Shown here: positions 14,592-57,182 of the stretch, one piece after another
How the letters are laid out: the number at the start of each line of letters is the position of its first letter
Position numbering within the stretch: the stretch's first letter is position 1
Source: Candidatus Bathyarchaeota archaeon
GTDB taxonomy: Archaea; Thermoproteota; Bathyarchaeia; TCS64
Assembly: GCA_963820555.1 (NCBI GenBank)
Contig: CAWGAT010000023.1
Location: 27,904-91,903 of the forward strand
Length of the DNA stretch: 64,000 nucleotides
Direction: 5' to 3'
Position numbers and translations under genes: made by a program
The notes under the pieces: model-generated
The model's database searches: none
Seen by the model: the letters and a program-made list of their open reading frames with translations, nothing else
What the model was told of the DNA's origin: nothing

Positions 14592-15782
14592 TTAACATAC
14601 GCCCCTGGGCTGCCGGTGGATGTCCACGTTATCGTGTGAGGTGGTTATGGCGAAGTTGGCGTTGCTCGAGTCGGTGATGGCGGCGTTGGTTGTGCTCGTT
14701 ATCCTTATCTTGTAGTCTGTTCCGAGGGTCTGAGTCGAAGGTATCGCCCAGCTAAATGAACCATCATTGGCCGTGCTCGATGTTATGACCCTGTTCACGA
14801 CTCCTGCCTTCAGTAGCTCAATCTTGACATTCGCCCCTGGGCTGCCGGTGGATGTCCAAGTCAGCGTGTGGGTGGTACCCCGAACCCAGCTCTCCCCGCC
14901 GTTCGGGGAGGCGACCGTCAACACCTCAATGACCTTGTACACCGCCCTCAGAGTACCGGTTCCACCAACGTTGACGGCTGTGGGGTTAGCGGTGGTGCTT
15001 GTTGCAGTTACGCTTCCAGTCGTCTCCCAGTGGTCAAATACATAGCCGGGTGCGGGGGTATACGAAGCCGAGTAGCCGCCAGCGACCGTGGATACGGTAC
15101 TTGGTAGAGACCAAGCTTGGCCTTGAAGGGTTATCGTCCCCAGGTTACTTGATGCGCCCGTGTCCTGCCGGGATTCGAGGGAGACGCGCACGCGCGCGTT
15201 GATGGGCACCTCTTCCCGTGTGAGTTCGATGTCGAAGGTCATGGTGTCGCTCTGGGCCCAGTTCTCCGTCTCCTCGTCCATGTGGTAGCTGGTGACGACG
15301 GTGATGGTCTTCCCCGGGTCGATGGTGCCCAGTGGGATGGGTTTGCCTGTGATGTCGTCTATGTGGCTACCGGTTTTCTCTTCTATTATCCACTTGTCGC
15401 CTGTGGCGGTATTGCAGCTGGCCGTGTTGCCGTCCCTGTCGATCCATAGGCCGAAGGTGATGACGGAGTCGATGTCGTTCCTCACGCCGTGTAGGTTGTA
15501 CCACTCCTGCTCGGGCTCAACGACGCCGTTCTCGCTGCATACGACGTTCTTCAGCTGAATCCAAGTGTTGGCAGCTTGTCCATAATGGTTCGGAATCTTG
15601 ATCACGATGTAGACGGTTTCGCCTGGGTTGAGGCCTGAGATCACCGGCTTAATTGTATCGGGTGAGGAGAAGTCGATTATGAAGGACCCGCCCGTGGTGT
15701 AGGCGTACGTCCCCGCCCCCAGGAAGGTGCTCATTATTGTGAGGGCTATTGCGAATATGGCTACGCTACTTTTCTTCCACAT
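14592..15782 (-). CDS. Secreted TasA-like N-terminal domain protein with an InlB-B-repeat-like module and a Ser/Thr-rich beta-sandwich module
   Basis: The N-terminus FLGAGTYAYTTG resembles the SipW-dependent signal class. GYVFDHWETTGSVTATSTTANPTAV is B-repeat-like. PNGGESWVRGTTHTLTWTSTGSPGANVKIELLKAG...YKIRITS is Kre9/KNH-like. The 3' end contains a second, out-of-frame and truncated copy of this last module. Confidence 0.65.
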   Translation of the reverse strand: MWKKSSVAIFAIALTIMSTFLGAGTYAYTTGGSFIIDFSSPDTIKPVISGLNPGETVYIVIKIPNHYGQAANTWIQLKNVVCSENGVVEPEQEWYNLHGVRNDIDSVITFGLWIDRDGNTASCNTATGDKWIIEEKTGSHIDDITGKPIPLGTIDPGKTITVVTSYHMDEETENWAQSDTMTFDIELTREEVPINARVRVSLESRQDTGASSNLGTITLQGQAWSLPSTVSTVAGGYSASYTPAPGYVFDHWETTGSVTATSTTANPTAVNVGGTGTLRAVYKVIEVLTVASPNGGESWVRGTTHTLTWTSTGSPGANVKIELLKAGVVNRVITSSTANDGSFSWAIPSTQTLGTDYKIRITSTTNAAITDSSNANFAITTSHDNVDIHRQPRGVC

Positions 15783-16793
15783 CCCCTTCAGCCGCCATAT
15801 GGAACTCGTATCTCACGTCGCCGTCGAGCACATAGAAGACCCCTTTATGGTGCATTATGGGCTTGAAGGCCTCCTCGGCCACCCTGGCGAGGTCCTCCAT
15901 GGAGCCTACCTTTATCGATCGCCCTCCTATTCATGGTCTTCGGGGGCTCAGAGGCCTCTATGATCTTATCCCTGATGTCCCCGCTCAGCCTTTCCAGGAG
16001 GGGTCTGGATGCCCTCTCCTGAAGGGTGAACCTCATCGATACGGCGAGGAGGGCTACCAGCGATATTGAGGCGATGATCGAGGCCACTTTCATCGCTCCA
16101 ACTTGCGCGGAAAGCCCGAGGAATCCCCAGGTCGCCGCCTCCGTCTCAAGGTGGGTGACGGAGCCCGCCTTCGTGCTCCTCAGCCCCTCGATTTGTATTT
16201 TCCCTCCATCGAACTTTATCGTGAGGGTCGGGGTGAACTCCTGGGCGATGGGTTCCCCTCCGGCCGAGGCCTCTAGACTGATTCGAGGCTTTATCTCGTA
16301 GGTGTAGGTGTAGATTCCGGTTCCGGTCTCCTTCCCTATGGCCTCGACGATGCCCTGGATCTTCTTTATGTCGAGGGTGTAGGTGTCGGAGAAGCGTGCG
16401 TCGGTAGTGACCTTGGGTTTAAGGGCGTAATTCTTGGCCCAGTCTCCCCCGCTCAGTGTACCTGAGGTCTCGTAACTCGTATTTATGTCGGCCATTTCGA
16501 ACGTCTTCGGGGTCTGGGTGAGGTTGTAGGTGAGGGTGATGTCCAGCCGATCTACGAGGTTCATGTAGAGTGGCTCGCCCTCGGACACCTCGGTCCGGTT
16601 GTCGTAGAGTAGGGAGGGCTTGACGTGGGCCGTGTAGACGTATTCGGCGCTCTGCACGTAACTGAGGTCCAGGTTGTTCTTGGAACATCGCGAAGGCATA
16701 CTGAATGAAGGAGTAGCACCCGTAAAGTGAAACCGCTAGGAGGGCTGCGAAGACAACTGAGGCGCAGGTCCAACGGCTTACCATCGTCATCAA
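15766..16793 (-). CDS. Membrane protein of the type that accompanies SipW peptidases (DUF5305-like as I recall); two frame breaks
   Basis: N-terminal TM segment in ORF 16419-16793 (MMTMVSRWTCASVVFAALLAVSLYG). Body in ORF 15845-16699, with a second TM segment (IIASISLVALLAV). The C-terminus continues in a third frame (IKVGSMEDLARVAEEAFKPIMHHKGVFYVLDGDVRYEF...*) to a TAG at 15766-15768, overlapping the next gene's start. Confidence 0.55.
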
Positions 16794-17347
16794 CCACCCC
16801 TAATAAAGACTAGGGTGTCCGCGCCGGTGAATCTGACTCCGTCACTGAACTCCCCGGAGACGGTCAGTGTCACGCTAGCGCCGTCCACGTAGCCCGCCAG
16901 ATGGGCGATGACGGAGGCCCTGTCGAACTTAACCATAAAGGCGTCGATGTTGCCATCGCCGTTTAAATCCACGAGGGGACTCGTCACGAAACTGTACTGG
17001 GTATCCGTAACGGCTGGAATCACCCCATCCAGCCTTACCGTGCTCACATCGATTTTATGGGCGTCGTACTCCGACTGTATGTAGACCGTGATCCACTGAA
17101 CGTTGCTTCCTAGGTTCAGGGTGTCCGGTTTTATATCCGGCTCTATCTCAATATTTGCGCTCACCTCCCAGACACCCGCGCTGAATGAACCTGTCGTCAA
17201 CGCGTTGGCGGAGAAGTAGCTGCTGCTCCCGCTGATGAAGTGGGGCGCTATGACCCTTGTGGTGCTTACGGTGAGGATCAGGGCTAGTAGGAGGGTAGTC
17301 GTGTCCAGCGCTGAGTGGCTCTTCCTCCTCCACCTCATCGTCTCCAT
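16790..17347 (-). CDS. TasA/camelysin-class secreted protein (small subunit candidate)
   Basis: TM/signal region followed by SSYFSANALTTGSFSAGVWEV, which matches the YFSD...N.F.AG motif of SipW-processed proteins. Then IEPDTLNLGSNVQWITVYI and DLNGDGNID. Confidence 0.6.
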   Translation of the reverse strand: METMRWRRKSHSALDTTTLLLALILTVSTTRVIAPHFISGSSSYFSANALTTGSFSAGVWEVSANIEIEPDIKPDTLNLGSNVQWITVYIQSEYDAHKIDVSTVRLDGVIPAVTDTQYSFVTSPLVDLNGDGNIDAFMVKFDRASVIAHLAGYVDGASVTLTVSGEFSDGVRFTGADTLVFIRGG

Positions 17348-17361
17348 CCTGTTCTCTCCTC

Positions 17362-17829
17362 TTAGTGGACTGGTGGATGGTGTAGACCTGCTTCCCGATG
17401 ATCAGTGCGGCTGGAGCAAGAGATCACCAAGGCGAATCCGTATGAGGTGTAGAGGTAGCCGAAGGGGAAGACTAGAACCACCTTTCCAATGATCTGGGAG
17501 GCTTCCACGAGGTTCGGGTCGGGGTCCTCGTTGGCGTCCCCCTTCAGACTGAACCTGTCGCCCCCTAGCTTCTCGACCACACGGTGCGTGTAGATAAATG
17601 ATCCCGACTCAACTGTAATTATATCGCCATTTTTGATATCGGTGGGGTTCTCGCCTTTGACGATGATAACGTCACCTGGATGTAGAGTCGGGCTCATACT
17701 CCCACTCAAGACGGTGTATGATTTATCGGCTCCCACTAAGAAGGGGAACCCGTTGATGAGGATAGGGATAACTAAAAGTAAGCATATTGCTGTTAGAGCC
17801 GTGGTTTTAATCAGGCTAGTTATTTTCAT
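17362..17829 (-). CDS. Signal peptidase I, archaeal/SipW type (S26B)
   Basis: N-terminal TM segment, catalytic Ser box VLSGSMSPTLHPGDVIIV, and GDANEDPD. The C-terminal tail may be frame-disturbed. Confidence 0.8.
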   Translation of the reverse strand: MKITSLIKTTALTAICLLLVIPILINGFPFLVGADKSYTVLSGSMSPTLHPGDVIIVKGENPTDIKNGDIITVESGSFIYTHRVVEKLGGDRFSLKGDANEDPDPNLVEASQIIGKVVLVFPFGYLYTSYGFALVISCSSRTDHREAGLHHPPVH

Positions 17830-17897
17830 CCTCTTTTCTCCACGAGATTTAATTTAAAAAAAGGGGGGAAGTCCGGATTCATTTGATTTTCAGGGAG

Positions 17898-18623
17898 TTA
17901 AGGTAGTAAGCTTATGTCTTGTGCGCCTGTGAATACGATTTTGAATGAACAGCTCTGACCCTGCATAGCGTTAGGCGTGAGGTCACTGAGCTTGAACATC
18001 AAAACCATCTGATAGGTGCCACCGAGAGCAAGAGCGGGTGTACCAGCCGGGACCGTGTCGTAGCCATAGCCTGTAACCCAGTCCCCAACGTGTGAAACCC
18101 AACCGCCAAACTGATCCTGCACGACACCCGTACCAGGCTCATTTCCAAAGTAGCTCTTCGCCAGTTCCATCAAGGTGAGGGGTGCCGAGTAATCTTTAAC
18201 CGAGGTTTCATAGTTTTGAGTATGATCAATGTTTTCTATCCAGCCATAGGTGGGAATATACTCTTTCAATGATGTGACTTCGATGTAGTTAGCCAATAAG
18301 ACGCCACTTGCCGTGTCACTTGAAAAGGGGTTCCCGTTTGCATCGGTAATTATGAGGTCACCACCCAAGTAGTTGATGTTCATGGTTCCAGGTCCAGTAT
18401 TCGCTATACTGATAGTGACTGGCCCAAATGCCTGTCCTGGCACCAAGTTACTGAAGGTGGTCGGGGAGGTTGTGACTGTCATGCTCATTGTTGCAGCGTT
18501 CATAGTGTAAGTATTCGTTGTCTGCGCTCCGGTGCTGAACCATGCCATCGTTCCAGCTCCGACGCCTGTAGCTACCAATACAATCGCGATTATGCTCGCG
18601 AGTATCGTCGCGTTTCCTTTCAT
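17898..18623 (-). CDS. TasA-like fibre subunit (SipW-dependent signal class)
   Basis: MKGNATILASIIAIVLVATGVGAGTMAWFSTGAQTTNTYTMNAATMSM matches the TasA/camelysin N-terminal pattern (..GT.A.FSD....N.F.A.....). 241 aa. It is the first structural gene after the regulator. Confidence 0.75.
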   Translation of the reverse strand: MKGNATILASIIAIVLVATGVGAGTMAWFSTGAQTTNTYTMNAATMSMTVTTSPTTFSNLVPGQAFGPVTISIANTGPGTMNINYLGGDLIITDANGNPFSSDTASGVLLANYIEVTSLKEYIPTYGWIENIDHTQNYETSVKDYSAPLTLMELAKSYFGNEPGTGVVQDQFGGWVSHVGDWVTGYGYDTVPAGTPALALGGTYQMVLMFKLSDLTPNAMQGQSCSFKIVFTGAQDISLLP

Positions 18624-18703
18624 TTTTCATCACTTTTTCATTTTTAGGGGAGCTTCGCCCTCCTGGGTTCACGGGATGTCCCCTTCTTTTTCCCGGCGGA
18701 TGG

Positions 18704-18928
18704 TTAGTCCACAGTTTTGCCGTCGGGTTTGGCCTTACGCAGCTCCGCCAGCCTCTGCCTCTCGTCTCTGAGCTTCTCGAGGACTGCCTCCCTCACGAAG
18801 GCTCCCCTGCTCGGCCAGTAGCCGAGCTCCTCGTTCAGCTCATCGATGGCGTCAGCTAGAGCTACGGGGATCGAGATCGTGACATATTTATCCAATCTCT
18901 CCCCCCACCGCGCCCATGACGACTCCAA
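18704..18928 (-). CDS. Ribbon-helix-helix (CopG-like) DNA-binding protein
   Basis: KYVTISIPVALADAIDELNEELGYWPSRGAFVREAVLEKL is a canonical RHH strand-helix-helix. The start is uncertain: TTG at 18928 or an internal TTG about 33 nt downstream (before DKYVTISIP). Confidence 0.7.
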   Translation of the reverse strand: MESSWARWGERLDKYVTISIPVALADAIDELNEELGYWPSRGAFVREAVLEKLRDERQRLAELRKAKPDGKTVD

Positions 18929-19062
18929 CCGGAAAAAATGTTAATTACTAACTATATACAACTATCCGTAATATAGATTAGTGATCCATAATAAATACGA
19001 CTAACACTTGGGAGAAAAAAAGGAGCCATAACTATGAGTCATTTGGCCCGTCGGAGCAAGAA

Positions 19063-19121
19063 TAGTGGCGGATTTTGAGAACCAGATGATTGGAGTCGTC
19101 ATGGGGCTCAACCCCCGCCAC
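19063..19121 (-). ncRNA. Candidate small RNA 5' hairpin, copy 1 (possibly extending to a U7 run at 19015-19021)
   Basis: 59-nt hairpin with a GTGGCGG/CCGCCAC outer stem and a TTGAG/CTCAA inner stem. The apical CCCATGACGACTCCAA is complementary to 18913-18928 on the RHH mRNA. A TATA box lies at the right distance upstream on the minus strand. Confidence 0.35.
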
Positions 19122-19145
19122 AGGAAAAATACGGATCGGGGGACC

Positions 19146-19153
19146 TATTTAAA
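19146..19153 (-). promoter_or_regulatory. TATA box (TTTAAATA on the minus strand) upstream of hairpin copy 1
   Basis: TAGTTTAAATA is conserved at both copies. Its centre lies about 26 nt from the first hairpin base (19121), matching archaeal TATA-to-TSS spacing. Confidence 0.4.
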
Positions 19154-19287
19154 CTATTATGTTAACCAAGAATTAATTATAAAATCCACTTAACAGATAA
19201 ACGAGTAATTGACACTAACTGCAATTACAGGTAGCGTCAGAGACATTTTAACTCAATTGTTACGGTTTGAAGATGATTTGAGCAGAG

Positions 19288-19345
19288 TAGTGGCGGGTTT
19301 GAGAACCAGATGATTGGAGTCGTCATGGGGCTCAACCCCCGCCAC
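19288..19345 (-). ncRNA. Candidate small RNA 5' hairpin, copy 2
   Basis: 58 nt. It differs from copy 1 by one substitution plus a 1-nt indel and carries the same apical 16-nt complementarity to the RHH gene 5' end. Confidence 0.35.
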
Positions 19346-19369
19346 CAACGAAAAAAACCCCAAACGCAA

Positions 19370-19377
19370 TATTTAAA
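19370..19377 (-). promoter_or_regulatory. TATA box (TTTAAATA on the minus strand) upstream of hairpin copy 2
   Basis: Same TAGTTTAAATA element at the same spacing from the hairpin edge (19345). Confidence 0.4.
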
Positions 19378-19494
19378 CTAATTCGTCAAATTGTCGGTTA
19401 ACAAGATGTTTACTTTTAGCGCCCCGAAGGAACCTATCTGCCATTATTAGGATAAAAATAGCCCCTAAATCTATCAACTACCGAAGGCGCCAAT

Positions 19495-19659
19495 CTATTG
19501 ACTCCTCTTAATGGCCTCCGAGAAAAGTTGCAGCTGCTTATCCAGATAACGCTTAAGGGCAGAAAGCATAAGCTCCTCCCGCCCCATACCATACAGCCTC
19601 TCAATAAAATTCATATCCTCTACAAGATTCTCGGGCAGGTCTAGCGTCACCAATACCAT
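19495..19659 (-). CDS. Small ribbon-helix-helix protein (54 aa; below the ORF-track length cut-off)
   Basis: My translation from ATG 19659 to TAG 19495-19497 gives MVLVTLDLPENLVEDMNFIERLYGMGREELMLSALKRYLDKQLQLFSEAIKRSQ*. This has the beta-strand/helix/helix layout of CopG/antitoxin-type RHH proteins. Confidence 0.5.
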   Translation of the reverse strand: MVLVTLDLPENLVEDMNFIERLYGMGREELMLSALKRYLDKQLQLFSEAIKRSQ

Positions 19660-19992
19660 GAATTAGGCCACCTATTATTGACATATAACGTTAATAGAAA
19701 GGATGACCAATATTTAGCATCCATGAGCACTCATCGTTTTACATTAATAAACTCTAACCGTAGCGCGCACCTAATTAGAAAGTGAAGAACTCATGGGAAG
19801 AATCACACCAATCCCAAGACCGTTTGGACCGTGCCAATATCCGGAGGGCGGTGACTATCGTGGTCGCGGTGGCGTAGATGGCCGCGTCCGTGATCTTGGA
19901 CATGGCTGATCGTTGGGTAGTGACCGATAAAAACGTTGTTTGGGCTGTTCTAATCTCTGGTTTGATAAGGGTGGATTGTCAGGTTATTCTGC

Positions 19993-21472: not shown

Positions 21473-23736
21473 TTAGATCGTGACGCGGTAGCGGTCCATG
21501 AGCTCCTGGCGCTTCCCCTCGTTCCACCCCGTCACGTCCGTGTAGTACCCCGTGATCCTGCTCCACCAGCGCACGTTCTCCGACCCACACGAGGGGCACG
21601 TCTTCAGCATCCCCGGCGAGGTGCTCGCACATTTACTGCACACCGTTAGGTCCTTCGTGTAGGCTGAAGTACCCGATCTGGCTGTTCCTGCAGATGCGCT
21701 GCGTCAGCTTGTAGAGCGCCTCCGGGTCCGAGCAGGCCTCGCCTAGCCAGGCGTGGAAGATGTTCCCGCCGCTCAGTATGGGGAAGAACTTGTGCTCTAT
21801 GTCGATCTTCGTCCCCAGTGGGATCTTCGCCCCAACGTAGGTGTGGGTACCGTTGCTGTAGTAGACGGGGAGGTCCCTCTTTCCCTTCGTCAGCGCCGCT
21901 GCCCCCTCCAAGTCGCCCTTTCACAGTTTTGACGGCGTACTTCTTGTACGTCGGGGAGACGAGGTCGCTGATGGCGAAGGTCTGCGCCGTAGACTCAGCG
22001 GGCGTCCTCGCCAGCATTATCTTGAACCCGTTCCTCATCTCAAGCCCCTTCCTGTACTTCTCCATGTCGAGCAGGAGCCTGATGGCGAGGCGCACGGAGT
22101 CGGGGTCCTCGTGTAGCTGCTTACCAGTGAAGTGCTGAACCATCTCGTTGACGCCTACGACGCCTATGACGTTCACCAGCTCCGAGAAGTCGACCGCCGG
22201 TGGCCCCAGCTGCCCCGTGTGCGGGTCCCTGGGCGTCTGCGTCGCGAAAGGTACCATATTGTTGGCGAGCGCCTTCTTCATCCAGTGCTGCTTCGTCTTG
22301 AAGACGTCGACGGCCATGCGCATGTTCTCCTGCGCCGCCTCAAGCAGCTTGTCGTAGTCGCCGTTGGCGCGGTAGGCCATCCTAGGCATGTTCAGGCTGA
22401 CGACCTGCCAGCCGCCCATGCTGAAGTGCTGACCGCCCTCGAAGTAGAGCTTCTCGTTGAAGTGCGGGTCAGTCTCCGGCGTGTTCGCGAACTGGTACGC
22501 GCAGCACTGGTAGCAGCTTATGCCGTTGCCGTAGCCGCGGTAGGTGGGGAGCATGTTGTCGAAGTAAGGCGCCCCGAACTTGCCCACCGACTCGTGGACG
22601 AGCATCCAGAGGTCGTCGTACTCAGGCTTGAAGAACTCGGGCGAGACGTAGTTCTCGTTCTTCGGGAAGTTGAAGGGCTTCCCCAGTAGTCCCCCTCCAG
22701 CGCCACCTCGGTGATGGCGCGGAAGAACATCTGAACCTCGTCCTCGTAGCTGCCGTAGGTGTCCGGCCCGACACGCCCCTTCATCACGACGGGCACGTTC
22801 TGCCAGATCTTCGGCACACCCATCGGCAGCTGGATGTTACTGAACACCAGCTGCCCGCCACGCGTCACGTAGGTCTGCGTCAGCTCGTAGAACATCATCT
22901 GGGCGAGCTGCTTCACCTTCTCGTAGGGGAGCCCCCTGAGGAAGGGCGCGAGGAACATCGTGTAGTACATGAAGCCCTGGCCGCCGCTGAAGTTCGTCTG
23001 CCCCGCGGCCAGCACCTTCACGCTGTGGAGGATGGCCACCTCCGGCTGCTTCGCTGGGCCAGCGACGCTGCTCCTGAAGCCCGAGCCATCGGGGATGAGC
23101 CCGTAGTAGAGGAAGTAGCGGAGGTCCCAGTCCTGGCAGAAGGGGCGGCGAGCCGAAGTACTCCAGCGTGTGGATGTGGATGTCACCCTGGTGGTGCGCC
23201 GTCGCCAGCGTCGGGTCCATCAGGAGCAGGTACTGCTCCTTGCTGAGCCTGTCCGCCTTCTTCTTGTGCACCGTCTCCGGGTTCGGCTGAAGGTTCGCGT
23301 TCTCCTTCGCCTCGAAGCCGCTGCCCGTGTCAATCTCGTACGCATCCACCACAGGGACACCGACACGCGTCAGGATGTTCCTGTAGACCTGGAGCTCCGG
23401 CATGTTCTCCGACTCGCTCCACTCGAGGAGGACGTTGTTCGTGATCTCCCTCACCATCGGGCCGGAGACGACCTTTGGCTTGATGAGCTTGATGCGCTTC
23501 TCGACCTCCTGGCTGAGCTTCTCCGCCCTCATGGTGCTCATGGGCTTTATCCCGAACATCGTCTCGGCGAGCTCCGTCTCCCTTACGAGCTGATCCACTA
23601 TCCTCGCCTTGTTCCACTCCACAAGGTAGCCGTCGGTGGTGCGCACCATCGGCATACCCCGGTAGAGGCGCTCTGCCTTGTAGAACTGGTCTATGAACGT
23701 CTGCCCCTCGGGAAGATCCCTACCCCTCTTTAACAT
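21473..23736 (-). CDS. nrdD: Anaerobic ribonucleoside-triphosphate reductase NrdD, interrupted by at least four frame breaks
   Basis: The N-terminal ATP-cone-like region is in ORF 22837-23736 and the catalytic core lies across ORFs 22518-23186, 21646-22605 and 21633-21911. My translation of the last segment gives TKDLTVCSKCAS...CPSCGSENVRWWSRITGYYTDVTGWNEGKRQELMDRYRVTI*, containing the Zn-ribbon and the glycyl-radical RITGYY motif. Stop at 21473-21475. Confidence 0.8.
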
Positions 23737-33036: not shown

Positions 33037-33112
33037 AGCCCGGTCGTCTAGTGGACAAGGATGGAGGGCTTTGGACCCTTAGACCGGAGTTCGAATCTCC
33101 GCCGGGCTACCA
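33037..33112 (+). tRNA. tRNA-Gln (anticodon UUG) with encoded CCA
   Basis: Hand-folded cloverleaf: acceptor AGCCCGG/CCGGGCU, anticodon stem GAGGG/CCCUU with loop CUUUGGA, and T-arm CGGAG-UUCGAAU-CUCCG. Discriminator A plus CCA at 33109-33112. Confidence 0.85.
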
Positions 33113-55943: not shown

Positions 55944-57182
55944 TTAGTTACGTTTCAGGTAGAAAATGATCGCGACAAGGATCAAACCGGAGAGTATGAT
56001 CTCTGATGAATAGGCGGGTATTCCCTCAGCCTGCGCTGTATCAGGTGGCTTCACTGTACTAGTGGGCATCCGTTGTTCCCAGGTCCCACTTGATCCACTA
56101 TAACTAAGGGCCCAGGTGTCGCCGTAGGATTGAAAGTTGGGCGGAGACCCAGTGATTCCTCCAAATAGAATCATCTTGTGATTGACTCGGTCGTATGCCA
56201 TCGATGTATCTAACCGGGATGGAGGCCGAGCACTGCTTGATACTTCAGTCCAGCTGTTGGAGGCATAGTCGTAGCTCCATGTGTCGTTTCTTATGGTTGC
56301 AGTGAAGCCATTGAAACCCCCATATATGATCAGCTTAGCCTGGTCCGAGTCGTATGCCGCCGCGAGCCAGTAGCGCTCATCGGGCTTCATGGGAGTCTCC
56401 CGCATCGACCAGTTGTTCGACGCTAGGTCGTAGACCCAAACGTCGTTTGAGTAGCCATGGGTCGAGTTGCCGAAGCCCTGCTTGGTAACCCAGTGCCCCC
56501 CGAACATGAGGAGCTTCCCATTACGAGTATCATACACCATGCTTGAACCGTACTCACCGATCGCCCCGCTTGGTAGCGGCTTGCTGATGGGCTTCATCTC
56601 GGTCCACATATTAGTGGATGGGTCGAAGATCCATGTATCCCCAAGGATGACGTCGTTCTGCCCGTATCCGCCGAACATCACTATCTTCTTATTGACCTCG
56701 TCATACGCCATGGCGGCGGATTGTCGGGCGGGGGGGCTCACAGCGGGCGAGATTTGGGTCCATGTCTTCGAGCCTATGTCAAAGATCCACGTGTCGTCAA
56801 AGCGTGCCTCCCCCCACCCCCCGAAGATGATGAGCTTCTGAAGATCAGGTACGTATGCGACGGAATAGAGGAACTTAGTTGGGGAATAGGAATTCACGGC
56901 AACCTGAGTCCACGTGTTCGCGCCGTAGTCGTAGGACCACAGATCACTGTATCCCTTCCAGTCGCCCTCTTCCTGTATCCCCCCACCGTAGAGCAGGGTC
57001 CTCCCCGACGCCTGATCGAACACCATTCGCATCGCCTCACGCTTTGAGGGCGAGACCTCCGTAGAACCTGCTGAGTGAAGCGCCAGCGTTGAGGAATAGA
57101 GGAGGAGAAAAACGAAGCCAAAACGCAAAAAAGAGGCTAGTTTGAGCAATGGAAAAGGTATCTGCACCACCATCTCTCGCAC
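55944..57182 (-). CDS. Kelch-repeat beta-propeller protein, secreted with a C-terminal membrane anchor
   Basis: About six repeats of the (..G...FGG.......ND.W.YD...N.W) motif, an N-terminal signal and a C-terminal TM segment (ILSGLILVAIIFYLKRN). Confidence 0.8.
   Translation of the reverse strand: MREMVVQIPFPLLKLASFLRFGFVFLLLYSSTLALHSAGSTEVSPSKREAMRMVFDQASGRTLLYGGGIQEEGDWKGYSDLWSYDYGANTWTQVAVNSYSPTKFLYSVAYVPDLQKLIIFGGWGEARFDDTWIFDIGSKTWTQISPAVSPPARQSAAMAYDEVNKKIVMFGGYGQNDVILGDTWIFDPSTNMWTEMKPISKPLPSGAIGEYGSSMVYDTRNGKLLMFGGHWVTKQGFGNSTHGYSNDVWVYDLASNNWSMRETPMKPDERYWLAAAYDSDQAKLIIYGGFNGFTATIRNDTWSYDYASNSWTEVSSSARPPSRLDTSMAYDRVNHKMILFGGITGSPPNFQSYGDTWALSYSGSSGTWEQRMPTSTVKPPDTAQAEGIPAYSSEIILSGLILVAIIFYLKRN

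Follow-up and report, generated by a model that had tools for sequence, protein, structure and literature searches.

Why should the same 16 nucleotides stand at the 5′ end of an archaeal operon and, inverted, at the apex of two hairpins outside it? The question is raised by a 64-kb stretch (64,000 nt) of contig CAWGAT010000023.1 from a Candidatus Bathyarchaeota archaeon, which was analysed as a whole and which we call the window. Its minus strand carries an operon that begins with RHH1, a gene for a ribbon-helix-helix (RHH) regulator, and goes on to a TasA/camelysin-like fibre protein and a signal peptidase; two hairpin elements lie upstream of RHH1 (Table 1). The original prediction, made from the letters of the window, took these elements for a co-oriented pair of TATA-driven small RNA (sRNA) genes, the loops of which pair with the 5′ region of the RHH mRNA. 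The comparative evidence described here supports that proposal, and we consider it probable that the elements are genes of a new family of archaeal sRNAs, each with its own promoter, that act in trans by base-pairing with the 5′ terminus of the mRNA of the RHH/TasA-like operon.

Complementarity between hairpin loop and operon leader

The two hairpins are near-identical, as first described: the copies are 56-57 nt long and 100% identical over 48 nt, and what sets them apart is a single substitution plus an indel of 1 nt in the outer stem. In the proximal copy, an outer stem (GUGGCGG/CCGCCAC) and an inner stem (UUGAG/CUCAA) carry a loosely paired apex that contains the seed, CCCAUGACGACUCCAA(UC). 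The hairpin folds better than shuffled sequence on both strands (z-scores of -3.8 to -5.9). On the + strand, the apex of both copies reads TTGGAGTCGTCATGGG, which is the exact reverse complement of 18913-18928, and this exact 16-mer occurs at three places only in the window. If up to three mismatches are allowed, five matches are observed where ~0.5 are expected, and none of 100 shuffles reached five, in keeping with the earlier judgement that chance is an improbable explanation. An invariant G·U pair and an invariant G-C pair lengthen the duplex to 18 bp (18913-18930), so that it reaches the predicted +1/+2 of the mRNA.

The 16-mer had been placed either at the start codon and first codons of the RHH gene or in its 5′ untranslated region (UTR), and it is the second placement that stands. 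A domain search matched the minus-strand open reading frame (ORF) 18704-18928 to the RHH_1 family. We found 63 homologues of RHH1, all of them metagenomic, and the sole one with a named source is a protein of a Candidatus Bathyarchaeota metagenome-assembled genome (MAG). In the protein alignment, M/L/V-DKY is the start in most of these homologues, which corresponds to the TTG at 18895, and in the related locus L032 the upstream TTG is out of frame (38 nt away as against 36). The predicted translation start of RHH1 is therefore the internal TTG, and a longer N-terminus (MESSWARWGERL) was rejected on these two grounds as being UTR. With this start, the 16-mer would form the extreme 5′ end of the leader and not coding sequence. 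The spacing of the operon's TATATA box, which lies 24-25 nt before GG-UUGG in all lineages, likewise puts the predicted RHH transcription start at ~18930. As for the claim that the pairing covers the translation-initiation region, what the duplex would occupy is the leader's 5′ terminus, with the Shine-Dalgarno-like GGGGGGAGAG following ~20 nt downstream, and the start codon lies outside it.

We fetched the DNA around the RHH homologues and scanned public collections with a conserved piece of the element. Across these related loci (numbered L001, L002 and so on), leader and seed change together. The leader reads UUGGAGUCGUCAUGGG and the sRNA seed CCCAUGACGACUCCAA in the window and in L007, while the corresponding pairs are UUGGGGUCGUCAUGGG and CCCAUGACGACCCCAA in L001, L003 and L031, UUGGGGUCGUCAUGGA and UCCAUGACGACCCCAA in L017, UUGGGGUCGUCAUGGCG and CGCCAUGACGACCCCAA (17 nt) in L028, and UUGGUGUCGUCAU(U)GGCGC and GCGCCAUGACGACACCAA in L015. 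At UTR position 5, the leader base and its seed partner are A:U in the window and L007, G:C in L001, L003, L017, L028 and L031, and U:A in L015; at position 16 they are G:C, A:U (L017) or C:G (L028). Three Watson-Crick pair types thus occur at each of two loop-leader positions, and the joint alignment has a G·U pair in L032. In the intermolecular helix, 93.6% of the alignment cells are paired; sliding the partner by 1-3 columns leaves the whole structure 31-48% paired, and the intermolecular covariation score was reached by none of 500 shuffles. Even between L015 and L017, closely related loci whose flanks are almost identical, there are several matched differences in seed and leader. The outcome that had been named as damaging to the prediction, namely a hairpin that is kept while its complementarity is lost, is not what we found, since complementarity is kept with compensatory double changes at two positions. 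In the helix of the hairpin itself, 95% of the cells are paired, with double changes at 2 of 13 pairs and several G·U intermediates; L032 compensates in the stem twice, from G-C to A-U and from U-A to G-C. That loop and leader change together points to RNA-on-RNA control of the operon.

Predicted energies agree with the pairing proposed near the start of the RHH mRNA. No other site in the window hybridises as strongly with the loop as the RHH leader (-39.4 kcal/mol, with the next best at -31.5), in a ranking that leaves aside the elements' own opposite (+) strand, which is trivially complementary; the average over all stretches scanned is -11.9 kcal/mol (standard deviation 4.5). Cofolding sRNA and leader gains ~-11 to -12 kcal/mol over the monomers. 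Apart from the leader and the opposite strand of the elements, the duplex scan found no second strong site in the window; duplex prediction over long stretches gave over-extended, uninformative duplexes. As other targets, we rejected the 3-mismatch sites at 56446 and 60257, which fall within coding regions or antisense to them and are no more than chance would give, and an 11-nt seed-identical match at 12037 of L003, which is inside a coding region, was taken as chance.

Two features of the leader were seen beside its pairing with the loop. RNAalifold, applied to 18800-18930 (-), pairs the Shine-Dalgarno-like GGGGGGAGAGAU with the ISIP codons (AUCUCGAUCCCC) and the leader sequence UCGUCAUGG with the AIDE codons (CCAUCGAUGA), the latter sequence resembling the sRNA seed. 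Both helices are essentially without covariation support, and coding constraints prevent a covariation test of them.

Table 1. Positions in the window of the predicted sRNA genes, their target and the neighbouring genes
Feature	Position	Strand	Basis or remark
Seed hairpin, proximal sRNA copy	19065..19121	-	covariance model, 79.8 bits
Seed hairpin, distal sRNA copy	19290..19345	-	covariance model, 87.7 bits
TATA box TTTAAATA, proximal sRNA	19146..19153	-	24 nt before hairpin base; A-rich ATAATAG, resembling a B recognition element (BRE), on its 5′ side
TATA box TTTAAATA, distal sRNA	19370..19377	-	24 nt before hairpin base
Predicted 3′ part, proximal sRNA	19014..19064	-	linker, second hairpin 19023-19049, U7 tract 19015-19021
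Probable 3′ part, distal sRNA	19181..19289	-	hairpin ~19202-19232, first T4 run ~19181-19184; 3′ end uncertain
Predicted target site, first 18 nt of RHH-operon mRNA (GGUUGGAGUCGUCAUGGG)	18913..18930	-	complementary to sRNA loop
RHH mRNA 5′ leader, ~35 nt	18896..18930	-	homologue starts, alignment; Shine-Dalgarno-like GGGGGGAGAG directly before TTG start
TATATA box, RHH operon promoter	18953..18958	-	24-25 nt before GG-UUGG, all lineages
Imperfect dyad ACTAATC-N8-GATAGT	~18959..18985	-	sequence conservation only; equivalent position in L001-L032
RHH1, RHH regulator, 63 aa, first operon gene	18704..18895	-	RHH_1 match, E=9e-7
RHH2, gene for RHH-like protein, 54 aa	19495..19659	-	homologue directly 5′ of sRNA gene(s), every locus
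TasA/camelysin-like protein	17898-18623	-	
Signal peptidase	17362-17829	-	
Unknown gene of the operon	16790-17347	-	
DUF5305 protein	15845-16699	-	
Ig-like Kre9_KNH protein	14592-15782	-	

Predicted promoters, distribution and relocation of the elements

The same TATA box had been reported at a fixed distance beyond each hairpin, and this proved correct for both copies; the spacing gives a predicted transcription start at ~19121-19122 for the proximal sRNA. Every lineage has a box of the TTTAAATA type 21-24 nt before the hairpin base, even where the element is at the 3′ end of the operon, although the spacer cannot be aligned. On its 5′ side is an A-rich stretch that ends in AG, and the distance from box to hairpin is similar to that from TATA box to predicted start in the RHH promoter (24-25 nt). 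Promoter core and hairpin are alike in the two copies of the window and the 3′ flanks are unrelated, so that plain duplication of a 224-nt unit does not describe the elements, which had been called tandem.

A covariance model built from 15 distinct element copies gave 22 matches of 67-88 bits in 17 loci, representing ~12 distinct lineages in which the RHH coding sequences have 78-92% nucleotide identity. The element was present in every related Bathyarchaeia locus fetched with enough flank, in one or two copies per locus and always in the orientation of the RHH gene, and the model found no further copy in the window or in ~200 kb of related-locus flanks. Among 185,579 species-representative genomes, the pattern occurred on one contig only, from an uncultured Bathyarchaeia MAG, with two copies at the same operon. 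The metagenome scan gave seven true loci, all at the RHH/TasA-like operon, and seven chance 19-mer matches with neither hairpin nor TATA box. A generic dispersed repeat, which had been named as a possible refutation, and more specifically a miniature inverted-repeat transposable element, were rejected on this distribution. No element was found at the distant RHH paralogues L033, L035 and L037 (62-67% identity) in a covariance-model search with filters off, and the predicted sRNA family is confined to a clade with at least ~77% RHH protein identity to the protein of the window.

The position of the element relative to the operon is what varies. It precedes RHH1 by 200-450 nt in the window, L007-L015, L017 and L028; in L001, L002, L003, L004, L031 and L032 it lies ~4-5 kb downstream, at the 3′ end of the operon. 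That the element relocates while linkage and orientation hold speaks strongly against a promoter-proximal operator and a leftover duplication. This bears on the idea that the 16-mer is a DNA site for a protein, RHH1 or RHH2, with the elements as operators or decoys and the hairpin as incidental dyad symmetry. RHH proteins commonly bind repeated sites, the inverted 16 bp stands at three places near two RHH genes, and 18913-18930 overlaps the predicted transcription start. However, at the six loci just listed, the element is far from the operon promoter, where an array of RHH operators would be expected, and yet it retains a TATA box of its own with constant spacing. Moreover, joint changes at two positions through three base identities would require that the protein be re-specified repeatedly, whereas the residues of the RHH beta-strand (DKY[V/A/I]TISIP) do not track the seed state, and a protein site has no need of compensatory changes in a stem. 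The dyad that abuts the operon TATA box is also a more obvious operator: it is probably an RHH auto-operator unrelated to the 16-mer, and its position supports the idea that RHH1 is an autorepressor. We therefore regard a protein site as very improbable.

Could the elements instead be non-functional repeats that gene conversion keeps similar, either remnants of a duplicated gene 5′ end or a small mobile element? Their polymorphic copy number would fit, as would the single copies of L012 and L025, which resemble the product of an unequal crossover between hairpins. Against this, in each lineage it is these 16-18 nt alone that resemble the 5′ end of the gene, their limits are sharp and do not move, and such a length is too short for ordinary conversion tracts. 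The hairpin has 89% mean column identity while the adjacent intergenic DNA cannot be aligned, and there are neither terminal repeats nor dispersed copies. Repeats without function are, in our estimate, highly improbable. The two alternatives raised at the outset, duplicated RHH operators and a decayed duplicate of the gene's 5′ end, thus found no support, given that the copies relocate with their own promoter and that their boundaries are sharp.

Two details of individual copies were recorded. Among contigs from related samples, some have two sRNA copies and others one. The single-copy loci L012 (569-624) and L025 (2980-3035) join the distal promoter to the proximal 3′ flank (compare L007, 651-930), and this joint, read from the sequence, indicates unequal recombination between two hairpins within a population. 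At L013/L016 (4915-4971), the proximal copy of MAG contig CAZIAF010000143.1 has a degenerate TATA box (AGTTAAAATGGG), a C·U mismatch within its outer stem, and its own leader mismatched at two positions, while the distal copy is intact; the proximal one may be a paralogue in decay.

Every locus carries a homologue of RHH2 directly 5′ of the sRNA gene(s), whether these stand before the operon or at its 3′ end. These homologues encode 47-54 aa (for example at 9867-10022 of L001, 9840-9995 of L003, 15128-15271 of L031 and 11011-11241 of L002). RHH2 alone has no Pfam match, and a profile of eight members weakly matches the CopG-family RHH structure 7by2 (E=0.007). From this constant arrangement, RHH2 and the predicted sRNA gene(s) are a conserved module, and RHH2 may be a regulator of the sRNA.

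After RHH1, the remainder of the operon spans 14592..18623 (-), and L015, L031 and L032 have a gene set equal to that of the window. At L002 (6001-10026), the RHH gene is followed by one 1232-aa protein in place of the TasA-like gene set. The L002 leader has largely lost its complementarity to the linked sRNA, which is itself intact, and L031, from the same sample, matches perfectly. GC-only motifs, GCGCGCACGC(GC), recur in the otherwise AT-rich intergenic regions of these Bathyarchaeia contigs, for example at ~10183-10195 of L003, ~15486-15500 of L031, ~13611-13625 of L032 and ~11449-11462 of L002; they are often 13-50 nt 3′ of operon-end sRNA copies, and are also found upstream of RHH in L001-L003. 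Elsewhere in the window, three long ORFs overlap at 21646-23736 (-) (21646-22605, 22518-23186 and 22837-23736). They look like one large gene with frameshifts, which could be a pseudogene or the result of assembly errors, and several further regions of the window also have long ORFs that overlap on the same strand.

Strand, predicted transcript and proposed mode of action

A number of observations weigh against an sRNA that pairs with the leader. Independent double changes in the intermolecular helix number ~4, and complementarity is imperfect in three lineages (1-2 mismatches in L013, a bulge and an A·C mismatch in L032, and a largely degraded match in L002). The duplex misses the Shine-Dalgarno-like sequence and the start codon, and a predicted hairpin around both persists in the cofold; as the duplex does not lie over the ribosome-binding region, no obvious translational mechanism follows. 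Within the sRNA, the flanks of the seed are predicted to be paired and only the 6-nt loop is clearly open. A simple consensus terminator scan flagged nothing at the sRNA 3′ ends, including the proximal one, and the sRNA transcripts, their ends and their pairing in vivo are themselves predictions. Lastly, two additional G·U pairs in the apical GAUGAU/GUCGUC stem make the + strand the more stable fold in 14 of 15 variants, by 0.4-9 kcal/mol, and three stem variants (two in L003 and one in L001) are paired on the + strand only.

The last two points are also what would favour a functional RNA from the + strand, which would share the 16 nt of the leader and act as its mimic or competitor for a common protein or a third RNA. 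Nevertheless, that side of the element has no conserved promoter-like box, whereas the conserved BRE/TATA box is at the right distance and oriented for the minus strand. Nor does a T-run follow the hairpin on the + strand, while on the minus strand a hairpin and a U5-U7 tract lie 3′ of the proximal copies and are conserved in four lineages. Eight transitions in the stem keep a G·U wobble on the minus, RHH-sense strand as against three on the other, and in L032 the apical U·G of the + strand is replaced through two changes by A·A, which suggests that this stem is not under selection. Covariation with the mRNA calls for a minus-strand RNA, since only that RNA is complementary to the mRNA; an RNA from the + strand would require an unseen third partner to account for the changes in the leader. 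We consider such an RNA very improbable. For the minus-strand sRNA that we favour, the A·C mismatches make the apex weak, so that the seed is loosely paired around a 6-nt loop, C(N)CCAA, that is fully open.

It is also most improbable that the elements encode a small peptide, either from the plus-strand MESSWGSTPAT mini-ORFs or from a minus-strand frame, MTTPIIWFS..., that begins at an AUG inside the seed. Both ORFs are present in the window, and the variable position of the seed is a third-codon position in the minus-strand frame. The plus-strand mini-ORFs, which had been pointed out at the start, do exist but are not conserved across lineages: their length is anything between 12 and 50 codons, and immediately beyond the hairpin they diverge or change frame. 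As for the minus-strand ORF, a 1-nt indel disrupts it after codon 6 in L015, L017, L002 and L031, its AUG is inside the hairpin, and there is no ribosome-binding site.

As for the 3′ ends of the predicted sRNAs, the run of seven A that had been put forward as a terminator is present and follows a second hairpin. Hairpin and U7 are likely to be the terminator of the proximal sRNA, giving an RNA of ~105 nt, and this 3′ part is kept, with T5-T7, in the proximal copies of L007, L010, L012 and L013. The probable distal 3′ part is kept in the distal copies of L007, L010 and L013; distal and operon-end copies offer no more than T4-T5 runs, whose distance varies.

From these features we propose the following mode of action. 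Each sRNA gene would use its own minus-strand BRE/TATA promoter, with transcription starting at the base of the hairpin, and the distal copy would give a longer RNA than the ~105 nt of the proximal one. The sRNA would consist of a stable lower stem that presents a weakly paired apex and, towards the 3′ end, of a further hairpin and a U-tract. The 6-nt loop and its flanks would serve as a 16-18 nt seed for the first 18 nt of the operon mRNA: the loop would kiss the unpaired 5′-terminal UUGGAG of the mRNA, and pairing would then zip to 18 bp, placing a duplex at the very 5′ terminus, well before the Shine-Dalgarno-like sequence. In this way, the sRNA would control RHH1 synthesis post-transcriptionally and, via RHH1, the autoregulated fibre operon, and it is in this sense that it could be said to gate that operon, as was first suggested. 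Our best guess is that it would hinder ribosome loading on the short leader or alter 5′-end-dependent decay of the mRNA. The effect could be repression or stabilisation, a direction that is not decidable from the sequence.

Known RNA classes and fibre switches

Searched at gathering thresholds, Rfam 15 found nothing in the window but a tRNA-Gln, and at E<=10 the only match in 18600-19800 was a chance one, away from the elements. This tRNA-Gln (UUG), at 33037-33112 (+), is the sole Rfam or ARAGORN match in the window. A C/D-box guide RNA (C box RUGAUGA, D box CUGA) was rejected upon inspection of the alignment, where AUGACGA and CUGG deviate at the positions of the G·A pairs. An H/ACA guide RNA was likewise rejected: ACA follows the stem in one copy only, and there was no Rfam snoRNA or H/ACA match. 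On sequence, the elements have three properties of a base-pairing sRNA, namely a promoter of their own, a compensated structure and a 16-18 nt seed that is kept in evolution. They would be a new RNA family within a known kind, the trans-acting base-pairing sRNAs, and what would be unusual about it is the 5′-terminal target site and the conserved partnership with a small RHH-like gene.

In type I toxin-antitoxin systems, such as IstR-1/tisB, OrzO/zorO and AgrA-AgrB/dinQ, the sRNA gene adjoins its target and is sometimes tandem, and the sRNA has ~18-30 nt of complementarity far upstream in the target 5′ UTR, away from the start codon. These systems are bacterial and control small membrane peptides that are toxic; their sRNA is as a rule encoded divergently. 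The Bathyarchaeia locus resembles them in its local and sometimes tandem sRNA genes and in its ~18 nt of complementarity in the 5′ UTR, away from the start codon. It differs in that the target is a regulator that heads a fibre operon and in that the sRNA is co-oriented and, in half of the lineages, ~4-5 kb away. A type I locus was rejected because the first cistron of the target encodes a 63-aa RHH DNA-binding protein and not a small hydrophobic toxic peptide. In CopA/CopT and RNA I/RNA II, a stable stem presents a 6-7 nt loop that nucleates kissing, and pairing then spreads into the stem. These RNAs are cis-encoded, fully complementary and belong to bacterial replicons, and their specificity shifts by paired substitutions in loop and target. 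A seed presented in a loop and paired loop/target substitutions are also what we find here, but the present sRNA would be trans-encoded, with complementarity limited to 16-18 nt. Both comparisons would concern function and not membership.

The closest characterised archaeal case is sRNA162 of Methanosarcina mazei. sRNA162 is reported to pair with a transcription-factor mRNA through a single-stranded linker that masks the ribosome-binding site; that mRNA is bicistronic, and sRNA162 also acts in cis (Jager et al. 2012, PMC3510493). The two would be alike in being archaeal, promoter-driven RNAs that pair with the mRNA of a transcription factor, one level above the regulon, and that do so through a short pairing domain of a structured RNA. 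They differ in that the sRNA162 seed is an unstructured linker on a ribosome-binding site, whereas here it would be a hairpin apex on the very first nucleotides of the leader. Neither sequence nor Rfam relates the two, and the present sRNA is known from sequence, in an uncultured Bathyarchaeia host. The literature searched held no description of a Bathyarchaeia sRNA.

With respect to the fibre genes, the tapA-sipW-tasA operon of Bacillus subtilis, as regards the operon composition given in PMC9245690, also combines a TasA-family fibre protein with a dedicated signal peptidase. Its control by SinI/SinR-SlrR resembles the present case as a multi-layer switch placed before a TasA-family fibre and signal peptidase operon. 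The Bacillus regulators are helix-turn-helix proteins with small protein antagonists and involve no leader-pairing sRNA, so that the likeness is one of logic only. More tentatively, one might regard sRNA and leader as a fast-co-evolving "address code" that, together with RHH2 and an autoregulatory RHH1, would form a three-component switch for TasA-like surface fibres, an RNA-based counterpart of the SinI/SinR biofilm switch that acts by capping the mRNA 5′ terminus with a duplex and not by masking the ribosome-binding site; we think this wider scheme rather unlikely.

Very few archaeal sRNA-target pairs are understood, and the Bathyarchaeia are an abundant, uncultured lineage of sediments. For the locus described here, target, seed, promoter and evolutionary signature can all be read from the sequence, which offers a concrete and testable candidate for an RNA regulator of a TasA-like fibre operon, itself probably related to biofilm or matrix. 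For organisms that cannot be cultured, covariation of seed and target over metagenomic contigs is a means of validating such pairs of sRNA and mRNA. If pairing does occur at the very 5′ end of an archaeal mRNA, it would raise the question of whether 5′-end-dependent decay, or the entry of ribosomes on short leaders, is the step that such an sRNA controls.

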